The notes beneath the pieces are model-generated. The model was not told where the DNA came from and ran no database searches. It saw only the letters and a program-made list of their open reading frames with translations. From an uncultured delta proteobacterium (GTDB taxonomy: Bacteria > Myxococcota_A > Polyangia > Fen-1088), in NCBI GenBank assembly GCA_963796685.1, contig CAWCMR010000006.1, positions 261,460-325,459 of the forward strand: a stretch of 64,000 nt of DNA. The letters are read 5' to 3'. Of the stretch, positions 14,928 through 23,501 are shown piece after piece. Position numbers and translations under genes: made by a program. Numbering within the stretch: position 1 is the stretch's first letter; every line of letters begins with the position of its first letter.

Positions 14928-14955
14928 GGCGAACGTCCTGGCGTTCAGCAGCAAG
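14928..14955 (-). repeat. Half attC (L'/R' only)
   Basis: Minus strand GCTGAACGCCAGGAC-GTTCGCC resembles the 3' half of the other attCs (GCTGAACGGCAAAGC-GTT); no R''/L'' partner found. Confidence 0.6.
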
Positions 14956-15097
14956 GGCGGAGGTAACCACCTTCAACGGGAGCCCAAGCGTGCCATCTGG
15001 TCCCGTCCCAGAAGGGCATAAGCAAGGGCTGCCGGCCATTGAGCTGCGAAAGATCGAGATAGGGGATATCGCTCAGGCTGATCAAATGGAGAGTCAT
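14945..15097 (-). pseudogene. Truncated cassette gene (50 aa) fused to half attC
   Basis: ATG shortly after attC1 R'; MTLHLISLSDIPYLDLSQLNGRQPLLMPFWDGTRWHAWAP... ends inside the half attC. Confidence 0.5.
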
Positions 15098-15107
15098 GGC
15101 TTGGTCG

Positions 15108-15214
15108 GGCTAACGCTTTGCCGTTCAGCTGCGAGCCCGTCGCACGAACGGTTCGTTGATGTTACTCCGATTTCCCTGCGGCGGGTTCGTCAGTCTGCAA
15201 CGGCTTGGTTAGCC
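15108..15214 (-). repeat. attC site 1
   Basis: Minus strand GGCTAAC-CAAGCCGTTGCAG...GCTGAACGGCAAAGC-GTTAGCC; toxin stop TAA lies in R''. Confidence 0.92.
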
Positions 15215-15500
15215 ATCGCCAAGTTCGAGCCGACGACGCCACGCCCTCGGATTGCGGCTGCCATGAAAGCAGGCAATCACCACGACGCACTCTGGATAGA
15301 CTCGATACAGAAGCCCAAAGGGAAACCGACGAATCGGCGCGCGACGAACGTCCCGGTAGAGAATCTGGTAGGACTCGGGCAGTTCGGAGATCGCGTTTGC
15401 AGCATGGGTAGCTGCACGAAGGAACTCAGCGCCGCTCATACCAACCGTTCGCGTCAGCCAGATCGGCCTCGGCTGCTGGCCGAAGAATGACCGGCTTCAC
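15209..15500 (-). pseudogene. RelE/ParE-family toxin broken by internal deletion/frameshift
   Basis: GTG start overlapping antitoxin stop gives MKPVILRPAAEADLADANGWYE; the rest (GAEFL...RRFPFGLLYRV...IACFHGSRNP) is in another frame with several residues missing. Confidence 0.8.
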
Positions 15501-15715
15501 CGTGAAGAGCCGATGCGACGAACCGCCTCGTCCCAGGCTGTGCCAGTCGGGCCTTCACGTTCCAGATCATCGAGGCGACCGTCGAGCTCTTCCCGCTGCG
15601 CTGGGGTCAAGGGAAGCAAGCTCGCAGCGGAACCAATGCTGTCCCAGAGCCTCCCGATCAGATCCAAACGCTCATCGGTACTGAGACGATCTACATCGAT
15701 AGCTGGCATGGCCAT
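15497..15715 (-). CDS. Addiction-module antitoxin (TIGR02574-like)
   Basis: LSTDERLDLIGRLWDSI...LTPAQREELDGRL...W motif; immediately upstream of the RelE/ParE toxin. Confidence 0.85.
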   Translation of the reverse strand: MAMPAIDVDRLSTDERLDLIGRLWDSIGSAASLLPLTPAQREELDGRLDDLEREGPTGTAWDEAVRRIGSSR

Positions 15716-15769
15716 GAACGTAGTATTCCACACTGCATCTGTCCTGCCAACCTGCACGCCGTAGCGTAT

Positions 15770-15870
15770 GGCTAACGCTTTGCCGTTCAGCGGCGCGGGC
15801 GCCGCACGAGCGGTTCGTTGATGTTACTCCGATTTCCCTGCGGCGACTGCGCTGCAACGGCTTGTTCGAC
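15770..15870 (-). repeat. attC site 2
   Basis: Minus strand GTCGAAC-AAGCCGTTGCAG...GCTGAACGGCAAAGC-GTTAGCC. Confidence 0.92.
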
Positions 15871-16141
15871 GGCGAACCCTCGTCCTTGTGAGCCTTCGAG
15901 ATTCATCACTATCGCCGCCGCTGCCGGCACCATGCTTCGCCGACCTGCCGCGGTTGCCGCCGCAAGCATTGATCGCTGCCGCAAGTGGCACGAACGGCGA
16001 CGCCCAGTCGCACGCCGACCAGAGATGTCGTCCCGTCCGAGCCCTCAGATACCGTCACCTTCCAAGTAGTTTGTCCGTCGAACGCCTTGCCGTTAAGCTG
16101 CGAGCGGCCGTCCGCGGCCGATCGACAGCTTCAACGGCTTG

Positions 16142-18604: not shown

Positions 18605-18708
18605 GTCGAACGCTTTGCCGTTCAGCAGCGGGGGTGCCGCCGAACCGGCGACCGGATTCTACACGATGCCCCTGCGGCACCACCGTCTGCTGCAACGGCT
18701 TGTTAGGC
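18605..18708 (-). repeat. attC site 4
   Basis: Minus strand GCCTAAC-AAGCCGTTGCAG...GCTGAACGGCAAAGC-GTTCGAC; upstream gene stop TAA in R''. Confidence 0.92.
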
Positions 18709-20028
18709 GCCGCCCTTCGCCTTCGCGAGCCATGACTTGTATTCTGCTCTTTGGGCCGTAGGGACGGACTGACGATCCAACAGCGCTACGAGCTCTCGAT
18801 AACGAGCTGTGCAGTTCGGATTATTGGCCATCCGTTTACCAAGAACAACGGATGTCTTGGGTGCTTCAAGCATCAAGCCGATCTCCCGGGGAGAGAAGTT
18901 CCGGATCATCTTTTCGTAAGCGGACGTTGCGCCCCGAGAGAATCCCCAAGGATTTCCCACAGCGCAAATGACGACGGCCTCGACATACTCAGGCTGAACG
19001 GTCTCTGGAAGAGCGCCTTGTCCAGCCAGCTCGGCGAGCTGGTCTGCAAATGGAGGCTCGTTATAGAAGTTGTTGAACTCGTTATGCACGGCCAGGAGGC
19101 GTTGACAGACGCGGGAAATGAGGCCATGGCGTTCCATGTCGCTTAGCAGAGCAAAGATACCCAGCTTGGTGAAGAATGTCCGCGAGGCCTTCTGCCGGTC
19201 GACCTTGCCTTCGGCGACGTATTCGTTATGTCGATTAATTAGCTCCGACTTCGTCTTGTCAGAGAAGGTTTGAGAGAAACCTTTGCAGATATCCAGGCAA
19301 TTGACTCGCGTTTCCTCTGAGGAGTTCGGATCACAGAAGACTCCGTGGAGCATCGCAAAGATGAAATCGCGTTGGGAATTATGCGTTGCGCCGAGCCGCT
19401 CGATCCACTTCGAGGTCTGGGTCACTGAGAACTTTCCCGCCTTGAGCGCAGCCAGAAATGCCTGCGTATCGACACCCTTCGGGTTCGTGCCGGAGCCTAG
19501 GGCGTATTTCACGCACCGGTTCAGGAACGCCAGAAGCTCGTGGTCATCCAAGGTTCCGGTTGGAGGATGTGCCGACGAAAAGTTGTTTCTGACCTCTCGG
19601 CACTGGTTCAGAAAGAAGTGGGCTTCCTCATCTACCAGGTTGAGACTCAGGCATAGGTCGAGCAACTCCGAATCCTTAAGATCGCCCAGGGTCTCCTCTT
19701 CGAACGGCTTGCGCGTAATCTGGGCCACGACAGAGAGCCCGAAGCCTCTTACTTTCTCGCGGAGAGCAACCACGGACGAGTTCCAAGCATAGTTTACAGC
19801 TGCGTCGAATAGACCCGCAGCGACCGCCACACACAAACGGGCATGTTGCGCCGTCAACTTGTCTTTCGGAATCCCACCAATCACGCGTGGAAGGGACTGC
19901 CAGGCATGGGCGATCTCGTCGTCCGCAGCGAGCAGCTCGCGCGGAAGCGAGAGAGCCGCAGTCAGCCTCGCGAGCAGGTCACCGCTCGATCCGGTTACAT
20001 CTGGGAGCTTGATGAGTTCCTTCTTCAT
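18703..20028 (-). CDS. Cassette protein with HEPN-like N-terminal domain
   Basis: 441 aa; helical; RNNFSSAH (R-x6-H) motif; GAGGAG RBS. Confidence 0.6.
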   Translation of the reverse strand: MKKELIKLPDVTGSSGDLLARLTAALSLPRELLAADDEIAHAWQSLPRVIGGIPKDKLTAQHARLCVAVAAGLFDAAVNYAWNSSVVALREKVRGFGLSVVAQITRKPFEEETLGDLKDSELLDLCLSLNLVDEEAHFFLNQCREVRNNFSSAHPPTGTLDDHELLAFLNRCVKYALGSGTNPKGVDTQAFLAALKAGKFSVTQTSKWIERLGATHNSQRDFIFAMLHGVFCDPNSSEETRVNCLDICKGFSQTFSDKTKSELINRHNEYVAEGKVDRQKASRTFFTKLGIFALLSDMERHGLISRVCQRLLAVHNEFNNFYNEPPFADQLAELAGQGALPETVQPEYVEAVVICAVGNPWGFSRGATSAYEKMIRNFSPREIGLMLEAPKTSVVLGKRMANNPNCTARYRELVALLDRQSVPTAQRAEYKSWLAKAKGGA

Positions 20029-20142
20029 GTGACTCCTCTCAAGTGCGCCTAAGGTCTCGCGCGAAAATAACTGATCGCATTAGTCTGATTGCGGCGTGAC
20101 TGTGTAGTTCCAGTCACCTCTGAAACGGGCGGGGCGAAGATT

Positions 20143-21554
20143 GGCTCTCCTGACATCTTCATGGAAGCGCGGGCACCTTGAAGACGGGATGAAGGACAAC
20201 GCCTGAGCAGCAGAGGAAGATGAAGCCAATGAGGGCTTGAGCGTTGTGGAAGCCATAGGCCCTGCGGGTGATGACCCTGATCTTGCCATTAAGGCCCTCG
20301 GTTCTTCCGTTATTGAGCCCTGTGGCGACAATGGCCACGATGCCGTCCAGGTATTTCTTGATGGTCGCGGCGACCTTCTTGAAGGAAGGTAGTCTGGATC
20401 GCCTGGCCCAACTGATCCATTCTTCGAGCTTCTGTTTGACGACGTTGACCTGGCGACGACCGAGGATGTCGCAGATGGCGATCTTGAGCAGGTAGCCGCG
20501 ATAGAGTCGGGCATTGGTCTTCGGGAGGGTCGAAAGCCTCTCAGACTCGGCCCTGGATAGGTTCCACGGATTCTTGAGCAGAAGGTACTTGGTCTTCTTC
20601 AGTTGCCCGCGTTCGTCGGTGTCCTCCAGGAGTCGGACCTCCGCACGCCGGAGCTCGTCGAGTGCTTCCTGCACGAGTCTCTGAACGTGGAAGCGGTCGA
20701 AGACGATCTGCGCTTGTGGCGCTCGCGAGGTGACCGCGTCGATGTAGGCCGCGGACATGTCGATGGTGACGGTCTTGAGCTTGCTGGTTCGTTCCGGGCC
20801 GAGAGCGTCGAAGAAGCAGCCGAGCGTCGCAGCGTTCTTGCCCTCGTGGGCCCAGACGACCCGCTGCGAGACGTGGTCGACAACGACGGTGACGTACTCA
20901 TGGTGCCGCCGGTACGACAACTCGTCGACGCCGATGTGTTCGAGGTCCTCGAGGAGAAGGCTAGGATTCTCGGTGCCGCGGCACCACCCGCTGGATGATG
21001 GCGCCGACGGTGCGCCACGCGATGCGCATGGTTTCGGCCACCATCGTCTGGCTTGCTTGTTGGGCCAGATAGGCCACATGGTCCTCGAAGTCACGCGTGA
21101 AGCCGACCTTCGGCTCGGCCCAAGGGACCATCTCGATGACCACGCCGCACCGAGGACAGTCAACCCTGCGCAGGGTGTAGCGCAGAAGAACCTCCATCCC
21201 GCACGCGTCCAGATGCCGCCAGTTCCGAGCCCGAGCATCGAACACGTCATGGACCCGACATCCGCAGCCTGAGCAGTAGGGAACGGTCGTCGTTGGCGCC
21301 ACGTGCACCAATATGCCAAGCAGATCGAATTCGACCGCCAGGACACGGGTATGTGGAAATTGGAGTAGGTTTCGGAATAGGGTGGTTGCGCGCATGGGCT
21401 CCTGGGCTTGTGGGTTCTAGACAAGCCACACGATACCCCAGGTGCCCGTGCGCACTTCGTCTCCACCTCACCCGAAACTCATGCCGCCCACATCTCCGTC
21501 GACGACGTGCGTCGCACCTACGAGATCTCCCCTTACGAAGATGTCAGGAGAGCC
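20143..21554 (-). mobile_element. ISL3-family insertion sequence (1412 bp)
   Basis: Perfect 18-bp IR GGCTCTCCTGACATCTTC; 8-bp duplication CGAAGATT at 20135-42 and 21555-62. Confidence 0.95.
20159..21395 (-). CDS. ISL3 transposase (frameshift near 20970)
   Basis: Zn finger CSGC...CPRC, VPWA; IGVDE, IDMS, DRFH, EGLNGKIRVITRRAYGF. Confidence 0.9.
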
Positions 21555-22797
21555 CGAAGATTGACGGCTTCCATCTCCTCGTGTGCGACCTTGATTCCCT
21601 TTTTGTACGAGTTCCGGTCGGCGGCGGCGCGGATGTGGAGGCCCCGCTTTGTCGTTGTGGCTCCAATCAGATTGACGACGGTTTCGAGAGTCTCAAGCGG
21701 CCTCCCCCTCCAGTTCGCGGTGATGTGGCAGAACATCCGGTGTTCGATCTTGTTCCACTTGCTCGTCCCAGGCGGGTAGTGCGCTACTTGTATCCGCAAT
21801 CCGCTCTCGTCCGCGAATTCCTGAAGTTCTGTCTTCCAAAGACGCACTCGTGCCCCGTTGCTGCCACCTCCGTCCGCAGTGATGAGCAGCTCCTCCGCTT
21901 CCGGATACACTGCCTTGCCCATCCTCTTCCACCAACGACGGATGGTTTCCACTGCAAACTCGGCGGTGTCGTGGTCAATCCCCACGCTCACCCAACCCTC
22001 GTTCCTTGCGAGGTCGTACACGCCATACGGAATCGCCTTGCCGAGTTCCTTGTCAATGAAGTCATGAACCCGGACGGGAACCGGCGAACCCTTCGGCTCC
22101 CATTCGCGGCCTCCGTTCTTGAAATCGCCCAGGTTCTCCTTCTTTTTGGTGTCGACAGAGATTACAGGCAGCCCCTTCGACTGGAACTCCTTCGCCCGGC
22201 GGTTGATGTACTCGAACTGGGCATCTCGGTCTGGATCCTGCTTGCCCTCTCTGGTCTTGTGGTTTGCCTGCAGACTGTAGTCCAGATCCACCAGTAGCTC
22301 TCGCACCTTGGTTGCGCTGACCGGGTGCCCCTGCGCTGTCAGTTCTTCAGCGAGGCGCCGCGTGCCTTTGCTTGTCCAACGAAGCGGCGATTCCGGATCT
22401 CCTCGTGTAGCGGGGTCGATCAGACGCTCAAGGGCTTTGACCAGTTCTGGGTCCTGATCCTCAATGCGTTTGCGCCCAGCACCGGGGCGGCGCACCCTCT
22501 GTTCGCATGGTGCCGCCAATGGCGGCGTCTCCCGCTGCACCTGCAAATCTCTTTTCCCTGCAACGATTCTCTTGTGGCGCAGGCCGGTCGCGCGAGTGAC
22601 GATGGCGACGCCGCCGCGACCCAGTGATTCTGCTTCCGCTGCGGCCCACAGTCGAATCTGGCGCTCATTCAAAATGGGCGTCAGATCACAAAAGAGCTTT
22701 CGAACCCGTTCCACTTCGTCCATATTGCGACACTCTTCCCTTTGAGTGCACAATATACGCAATTGTCCCTATATGCGCTCCTTTATTTACGCGCGAG

Positions 22798-22965
22798 ACC
22801 TAACGCCCTGCCGTTCAGCGGCGAGGGCCGTAGGTGAAGGTCGATAGTAGCACTGCCGGGGCCGCGCGGCGGCCTTCCGATCATCAGATGAGCCGCGCGG
22901 CCCCGGCTCGTTGACCGTCGACCGAGAGTTGACAGGCCCTCGTCCGCTGCAACGGCATGTTCGAC
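22798..22965 (-). repeat. attC site 5 (168 bp), R' partly supplied by the IS end
   Basis: Minus strand GTCGAAC-ATGCCGTTGCAG...GCTGAACGGCAGGGC-GTTAGGT; internal GCCGGGGCCGCGCGGC inverted repeat. Confidence 0.88.
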
Positions 22966-23208
22966 AGCCAGGCCACCGACCTTCTCCAATTCCACTTCCA
23001 AACCCTTGACGAAATCGGTCCTCCTCGGCGCCAAGCTCTCGACTTAAGGCTCGTCGCCCACCACGAGGCTCACGACGCTGGTCCCGATCCAACCTTCAAA
23101 ATGGCACCAGTCCTGCCCGTGAGATCGGTCTTGCTGCTTCGATGATCGCGGGCCGCGCCCCATCATTGACCTACCCGCTTCCGGCGACTTCTTCCTCTGC
23201 GGCGGTCT

Positions 23209-23246
23209 GTCGAACTACCTATTAGCATGCGAAGAATAACATTAGC
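23209..23246 (-). other. Putative attI site
   Basis: Minus strand GCTAATGTTATTCTTCGCA-TGCTAAT-AGGTA-GTTCGAC: R box, 5-nt spacer, degenerate L box, AT-rich, no attC hairpin. Confidence 0.65.
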
Positions 23247-23501
23247 GCAGCGGCGGAAGGTGGGGTTTTCGGGCGGGTCGGGGGTTCGAATCCCTGCGAT
23301 TTCGCGTGGTTGGCGGTCGCGCTTGGCGCCTTGGGCGCTCGTGGCCGCTTCGTAAGCAGGATTCCGTCCGCGCGCGGGCGCTGCCAATTGGTGGTCTAGC
23401 GGTCGAGTGGGCTGCGTAGGCCAAGGCCGGTGACCAGGCGCGCGTCGGCCGATAGGCCCGCGTCCGCGAAGGTGGCGCAGGCCGCAAGGGCTTTCGGTGC
23501 T

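Follow-up and report, generated by a model that had tools for sequence, protein, structure and literature searches.

Here we report the analysis of a 64,000-nt window (positions 261,460 to 325,459 of contig CAWCMR010000006.1, GenBank assembly GCA_963796685.1) from the genome of a soil bacterium, in which an insertion sequence (IS) of the ISAzo13 family immediately follows the G in the R' core (G|TTAGGC) of an integron attC site. The IS entered at a TTA that was cut with a 3-bp stagger, and one of the two cut positions is the G|T step used by integron integrases, whose crossover lies between the G and the TT of the R' core. The most likely explanation, to which we give a probability of roughly 0.55, is ordinary transposition by a DDE transposase of the ISAzo13 family whose obligatory target trinucleotide, TAA or TTA (TWA), happens to be part of the attC core. 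This TWA-directed insertion is ranked ahead of a targeting strategy aimed at attC, which is possible and would rest on two events. The genome (termed G000; 7.31 Mb, 26 contigs labelled C1, C2 etc., 64.6% G+C) was searched for further copies of the IS and for attC sites, and the target habit of the family was established from related elements in other genomes and in metagenomes.

All coordinates without a contig label are those of the window, and the IS, the attC, and the downstream cassette all lie on its minus strand. The ISAzo13-family IS occupies positions 20053..22800 and measures 2,748 bp with a nested IS and 1,328 bp without it. Its terminal inverted repeats (IRs) begin GGTCTCGCGCG at 20053 on the plus strand and at 22800 on the minus strand; all 11 of the terminal 11 bases are complementary, and the repeat continues to approximately 28 nt, giving a transposase-proximal IR at 22773..22800 (minus strand, GGTCTCGCGCGTAAATAAAGG...) and a distal IR at 20053..20080 (plus strand, GGTCTCGCGCGAAAATAACTG...). 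The 21-nt end pattern has two matches in the window, with 0.01 expected. Read on the minus strand, the junctions are ...CAGGGCG-TTA-(GGTCTCGCGCG...CGCGCGAGACC)-TTA-GGCGCACTTGAGAGGAGTCACATG, with the IS in parentheses. The attC-side copy of the target-site duplication (22801..22803, minus strand, TTA) completes the G|TTA of the R' core, and the cassette-side copy (20050..20052, TTA on the minus strand and TAA on the plus strand) is followed by GGCGCAC, that is, by the original R' box and the start of the cassette. An earlier note on this DNA had proposed the pre-insertion site G-TTA-GGCGC with duplication of TTA, and both junctions agree with it, the empty site being deduced from the duplication alone. 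In 88 related genomes, where the DNA of the cassette had no match beyond its attC, and in the contigs of four soil runs from one study, no unoccupied allele of the junction was found; the soil contigs are silent on the empty junction because they cover both IS elements but not the cassette open reading frame (ORF). The new junction, GTTAGGT, still fits the GTTRRRY consensus as had been claimed, since the TTA duplication and the GG terminus of the IS preserve the motif.

The interrupted site is an attC of a long class (22798..22965, minus strand) that aligns with six other long attCs of the genome. It matches the strict attC pattern used in this study (R''..AAC, 1-4 nt, L'' ending in CGTT, its reverse complement as L', spacer, GTT) and scores 31.2 with a position weight matrix (PWM) built from the 25 nt ending at the crossover G, hence blind to the downstream bases. 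R'' is GTCGAAC at 22959-22965 and R' is now GTTAGGT at 22798-22804, with the spacer AGGGC; the crossover G is 22804, and bases 22798-22800 are derived from the IS. The site thus reads GTCGAAC ... GTTAGG(C/T), with the inner pair GCCGTT/AACGGC and an imperfect R''/R' pairing. Its bottom strand folds with -59.8 kcal/mol (z -7.3) and with the AAC and GTT triplets paired. The L''/L' stem has a bulged G and a bulged A on the 5' arm in the minus-strand reading, i.e., on the R''/L'' arm, and in both occupied attCs of the genome, the second of which is described below, two single-base bulges lie on the 3' arm when the bottom strand is folded. Extrahelical bases of the folded bottom strand of an attC are expected on the R''/L'' arm, and these bulged bases have a role. 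The fold is the same at the IS junction and at the empty junction rebuilt by script (-59.8 vs -59.8 kcal/mol, with the same AAC/GTT pairing), and nearly so at the second occupied locus (-25.5 vs -25.7 kcal/mol). It is structurally reasonable that the attC at the IS junction should remain usable by the integrases of this genome.

Downstream of the IS, a cassette ORF of 441 aa (18703..20028, minus strand) starts 22 nt past the R' core with an ATG preceded at 5 nt by AGGAG; the stretch between the cassette-side TTA and this ATG is GGCGCACTTGAGAGGAGTCAC. The IS and the ORF form a single cassette, which runs from 22803 down to 18611 (4,193 bp) and is closed by the next attC (18605..18708, minus strand; R' GTTCGAC, crossover G at 18611). 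The expectation that the IS becomes the 5' part of the next cassette was thus borne out, with the IS making up its leading 2.75 kb.

The 20050..22804 region had previously been read as a single ISAzo13 element; its family and ends stand, but the element is composite, because a 1,412-bp IS of the ISL3 family with perfect 18-bp IRs (GGCTCTCCTGACATCTTC) is nested inside it (20143..21554, minus strand). Window positions 21555-22800 correspond to nucleotides 1-1246 of the ISAzo13 IS and positions 20053-20142 to nucleotides 1239-1328, including the 8-bp duplication made by the ISL3 insertion (CGAAGATT, 20135..20142, with the second copy at 21555-21562). In a BLAST search against the genome, four uninterrupted 1,328-bp copies (98.6-99.9% identity) were found, on which the two window pieces overlap by 8 bp, and contigs of the four public soil runs join position 20134 directly to 21555. 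The intact copies contain one ORF of 420 aa, whose product matches NCBIfam NF033519 with 589.7 bits (cut-off 200) over profile positions 2-387 of 387; the other family match of the transposase is a weak one to IS630 only (43 bits, under its cut-off). The transposase ORF in the window (21533..22762, minus strand, 409 aa; Pfam PF07592, 3.3e-140) is identical to the intact protein over residues 1-403 (403/403 in a pairwise comparison). Its final 17 residues were lost to the ISL3 insertion, and six residues are read from the nested IS instead. The ISL3 element arrived after the ISAzo13 element and truncated its transposase.

Five copies of the ISAzo13 IS are present in the genome, and all five have a TAA or TTA duplication on both sides. 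Two of them, the window copy and a copy at C10:8368, lie at the identical nucleotide of two different attCs and in the same orientation. Their upstream attCs measure 168 nt and 71 nt, respectively, and their downstream flanks are TTAGGCGCACTTGAG vs TTAGCCAGACCGAGC; because the flanks differ on both sides, we consider the two insertions independent transpositions. The third copy, in antisense orientation, lies within another array, where an attC follows 36 bp further on and the end of a cassette ORF is clipped by the insertion. The copy on C25 is located inside an apparently continuous ORF, according to our own reading of its flanks (a long open frame enters the junction), and the copy on C5 has no attC nearby. 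A G follows the duplication on the distal-IR side in all five copies, which accounts for the shared orientation at G-TTA-G.

Outside this genome, the IS was traced to a single relative. The sister genome G036 has one 98% identical copy with decayed ends and unequal flanks (TGA/TAA), which is not located at an attC, as well as two IS-derived miniature inverted-repeat transposable elements (MITEs) of approximately 155 bp that keep both IS ends (L148 on C14 and L149 on C1). Neither MITE is at an attC, and at least one of them is flanked by a TTA duplication. A DNA search of 89 genomes of the family and order and of 401 genomes of the class found no near-identical copies beyond G000 and G036, and a 28-nt pattern for both IS ends had no matches in metagenome contigs. 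The exact end pattern occurs in five stretches of a collection of contigs from other genomes; one of them, L049, resembles an IS end (preceded by TAA, with no attC seen), and the other four seem to be chance matches. The pattern GAACGSCANNSCGTTAGG has 15 matches in the 89 family genomes, of which two are the IS junctions of G000 and 13 are plain attCs; the 13 GTTAGG attCs outside G000 in these genomes are all unoccupied. The earlier note had proposed a tabulation of the flanks of all copies, and the result is divided: the two of five copies at attC give some support, but three of the five copies, the G036 copy, and both MITEs are elsewhere.

The target habit of the wider family argues for an insertion governed by the trinucleotide. 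The ISAzo13 family has a 3-bp target duplication, as stated in a passage of PMC10045372. In related genomes, an identical TAA/TTA duplication together with GG..CC ends was found in 12 of the 15 elements with assignable ends. For metagenome relatives of the transposase, 80 loci were fetched (52-65% identity), of which 56 gave no IR-plus-duplication pair, mostly because the contigs end at the IS; a TWA duplication with GG..CC ends was present in 15 of the 24 loci that have such a pair. The consensus over 25 related insertion sites is C-TWA-G, with C before the trinucleotide in 72% and G after it in 72%. From these 25 independent insertions, the duplicated trinucleotide was derived as TWA and its context as C-TWA-G, a small usable addition to the description of the family. 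As the TWA duplication and the GG ends are family-wide, the rebuilding of the R' box is automatic. None of the 27 related insertions lies at an attC; the G|TTA context occurs in three of them, one of which abuts the end of another IS and two of which have no attC-like fold. Neither was there a preference for foldable DNA, with a mean of -11.2 kcal/mol at 23 related sites vs -12.8 kcal/mol at 300 random TWA sites, all taken from G000 (one-sided P 0.96).

TWA is scarce in this genome, and cassette arrays hold more of it than the remainder. Only 17,577 TWA sites were observed, compared with approximately 80,800 expected from base composition, a strong depletion. Their density is 5.4 per kb in arrays (387 sites) vs 2.4 per kb genome-wide. 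The arrays also collect unrelated IS elements: of the 14 full ISL3 copies, six are found in arrays or next to them, at varied distances (119-1,250 bp) from a crossover G. Taken together, these properties suggest how ordinary transposition may have reached attC twice. A family-wide TWA target, usually with a G on the distal-IR side, would also fix the orientation at G-TTA-G; the scarcity of TWA in a genome of 64.6% G+C would funnel the IS to few sites; and cassette arrays would act as tolerant, TWA-richer sinks for IS elements generally. The three factors could jointly account for both attC insertions, and a device for recognizing attC would be unnecessary. With the attC presumably still usable, the IS could travel with its cassette, which would be a by-product of the insertion.

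The site had originally been interpreted as the outcome of a harmless targeting strategy that lets the IS hitch-hike on the movement of cassettes. The attC position and the kept core support this proposal in part, but a dedicated strategy is not supported: attC insertions are absent among the 27 relatives, and three of the five copies are located elsewhere. Hitch-hiking found no support, as there is no trace of a moved IS-bearing cassette: the same IS-plus-cassette unit was not seen at a second place in this genome or in 88 related genomes, and the two attC copies precede different cassettes. Moreover, any insertion within a cassette would ride along with it, and hitch-hiking therefore does not depend on the crossover position.

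Ordinary TWA-directed insertion has to contend with the numbers. A total of 88 PWM matches was found in the genome, compared with five in the reversed genome, and TT follows the crossover G in 78 of them, with the R' cores GTTC in 44, GTTG in 18, and GTTA in 16. The R' TTAs of attCs thus make up 16 of the 17,577 TWA sites, or of 17,540 by another count, and the probability that at least two of five insertions hit them is 8e-6 under a uniform choice over TWA sites. It is 1.5e-5 under a model of sequence preference built from the 25 related insertions, in which the attC sites are near average (31.0 of a total weight of 25,270). With only arrays considered, the probability of at least two of three insertions at attC is 0.005 if the choice is uniform and 0.014 if it is weighted by sequence preference. 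In addition, attC sites have a G before TTA where the relatives prefer a C, and the two occupied attCs have in common a rare spacer, CAGGGCG, present in 4 of the 16 GTTA attCs but absent from the other 62 attCs, which hints at some extra specificity. All these points weigh against the account that we prefer. A fairer test omits the copy flagged at the outset, because the hypothesis was raised by that copy. By simple arithmetic, the probability that at least one of the other four copies hits an attC core is then approximately 0.005 genome-wide (per-insertion probability 0.00123), and approximately 0.13 for the two other in-array copies only, so the statistical support within arrays becomes weak.

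The strongest competitor, tentative and behind ordinary transposition, is that this IS lineage, not the whole family, prefers the R' end of attC, recognized either as an extended sequence (approximately CAGGGCG-TTA-G) or as the base of the attC hairpin, extruded or single-stranded. The lineage would in this way gain a harmless site to land on and a ride with moving cassettes. The probabilities given above, genome-wide, in arrays under the sequence model, and genome-wide with the flagged copy left out, all speak for it, as do the two of five copies at the same nucleotide and in the same orientation of different attCs. The chance that both occupied sites would carry the rare CAGGGCG spacer is approximately 0.05 by arithmetic, and a third copy lies in an array 36 bp from an attC. 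A further point in its favor is the related element L097, whose insertion point is the TTA that forms the 3-nt loop of a perfect palindrome of 11 bp (GGATGCACCAC TTA GTGGTGCATCC). However, the events are only two and the in-array probability without the flagged copy is approximately 0.13; three of the five copies of this IS, the G036 copy, and the two MITEs are not at an attC core, nor is any of the 27 relatives. A general hairpin preference is absent, and the shared orientation is already accounted for by the G after the duplication. Unoccupied attCs with CAGGGCG-TTA-G are also available at C5:138565 and C9:114069, which may be one locus assembled twice. That one ISAzo13 lineage evolved a real preference for the crossover core of attC, with its duplication and GG terminus regenerating the site, appears rather unlikely.

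Far less probable is that the site is not a functional attC, and that its overlap with the crossover point is merely nominal. No integrase is encoded in the 64-kb window, the nearest intI on the contig being approximately 275 kb off, and the window array is called integrase-less for this reason. Most R' boxes of this attC family (44 of 78) are GTTC and depart from GTTRRRY, and the R''/R' pairing is imperfect; a canonical scan (RYYYAAC ... GTTRRRY, at least 6/7 complementary) had no match in the window and was replaced with the family-specific patterns because of these two features. On the other hand, the genome encodes three integron integrases (410-474 bits vs a cut-off of 265), each directly followed by attCs of this family (on C9, C22, and C6). 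The sites form arrays of 2-15 and are present in related genomes from five genera of the family, and the attC at the IS has a strong fold with its bulged bases on the expected arm. It is very improbable that the integron itself spread both attC-linked copies, with IntI excising and re-inserting an IS-bearing cassette: the IS does lie wholly within a cassette with intact attCs on both sides, and the three integrase genes exceed the curated cut-off, but cassette movement would keep the same downstream cassette, while the downstream flanks and the upstream attCs of the two copies differ, and this genome holds the 441-aa cassette ORF only once, with its DNA in none of the 88 related genomes.

Several further observations concern the attCs of this genome. 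The strict pattern found 56 sites, of which C15:117167 and C25:354418 were judged chance matches, and the arrays occupy approximately 1% of the genome. With GTTC as the commonest R' core, this attC family mostly deviates from the textbook GTTRRRY. An identical attC pair with its flanks is found at C5:138044-138565 and C9:114069-114586, which is a real repeat or was duplicated in the assembly; in the latter case, the number of distinct GTTA attCs is 15 instead of 16. Four good-scoring attC 3' halves (C2:9538, C8:200788, C16:25125, and C25:1492413) lack TT after the crossover G, such as the one at C2:9538, which scores 32.1 and continues with CTCGAC. Mutation of the sites could explain them, as could a junction with something else. 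The long attC class has seven members of 167-170 nt in the genome, whose variable regions, normally divergent between attCs, are near-identical; the class keeps a perfect 16-bp hairpin in its inner part (window 22855-22870 / 22892-22907). The integrase genes (C9:33503-34444, C22:232551-233489, and C6:1518-2459) share their reading direction with the array beyond their 3' ends, the 'inverted' integron layout.

The window array comprises six attCs on the minus strand, with the IS at the first of them. In addition to the attC that closes the IS-bearing cassette, four further sites are located at 14934..16107 (minus strand), with crossover Gs at 14934, 15114, 15776, and 16083 and with full sites at 15108-15214 and 15770-15870. 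The 441-aa cassette ORF has no match in Pfam or NCBIfam, and a consensus promoter scan of 19900-23300 returned no promoter-like sites. The transposase of the nested ISL3 element has the domains PF01610 (6.1e-71), PF13542, and PF14690 and, owing to a single additional base near 20967, is broken into two frames (20961-21395 and 20159-21466); this base is missing from the contigs of the four public runs. The 14 full ISL3 copies of the genome measure 1,411 bp (10 copies), 1,410 bp (two copies), or 1,412 bp (two copies), and 12 of them are flanked by 8-bp duplications. The array-linked copies, on C2, C6, C8, and C25, have AT-rich duplications of 8 bp; two copies on C2 (636-2045 and 2054-3463) stand head to tail, with the duplication ACAATTCA common to both. 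Among the related ISAzo13 elements, three (L014, L054, and L081) are inserted against the end of another copy and have its TWA in common, which suggests that a TWA beside a GG end like that of an IS is a preferred target in its own right.

Comparison with known systems places the element within the ISAzo13 family, whose eukaryotic relative is Zator: it matches the same transposase models and shares the 3-bp duplication, the short terminal inverted repeats, the single ORF, and the length of approximately 1.3 kb, with no essential difference. No publication connecting this family with integrons or attC sites emerged from full-text literature searches. For now, the case illustrates how an AT-only target in a GC-rich genome funnels an IS to scarce TTA/TAA trinucleotides, the attC core among them. 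An attC-specific element would have most of its copies and its close relatives at the same attC position, a distribution that this IS does not show. In the IS1111-attC group (ISPa21, ISPst6, and ISKpn4), by contrast, an IS is found repeatedly at a fixed attC position, which is the point of likeness. These elements have DEDD transposases guided by a seekRNA, as described in part of PMC11187229, and, according to a passage of PMC3001079, enter attC close to its 5' end and in antisense to the cassettes. The IS studied here has neither a DEDD (IS110/IS1111) transposase nor a 5'-end antisense insertion; it has a DDE transposase, a 3-bp TTA duplication, and a sense insertion at the 3' R' core, with two of five copies at attC. 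Group IIC-attC introns are retroelements that, according to PMC3001079, insert in attC's bottom-strand sequence near its 5' end, opposite to cassette transcription; they resemble the present case as mobile elements that sit in an attC and leave the cassette array intact, and their mechanism is unrelated. If a preference of the lineage were real, a plain cut-and-paste transposase would make use of the integron crossover site yet leave it intact, and IS elements would have a new way to enter cassettes and travel with them, bringing read-through transcription or homology for rearrangement into the arrays. It would constitute a third, mechanistically independent route of attC parasitism beside the IS1111-attC elements and the group IIC-attC introns, and the only one in which the entire attC is left upstream and the element stands in sense orientation at the head of the next cassette.

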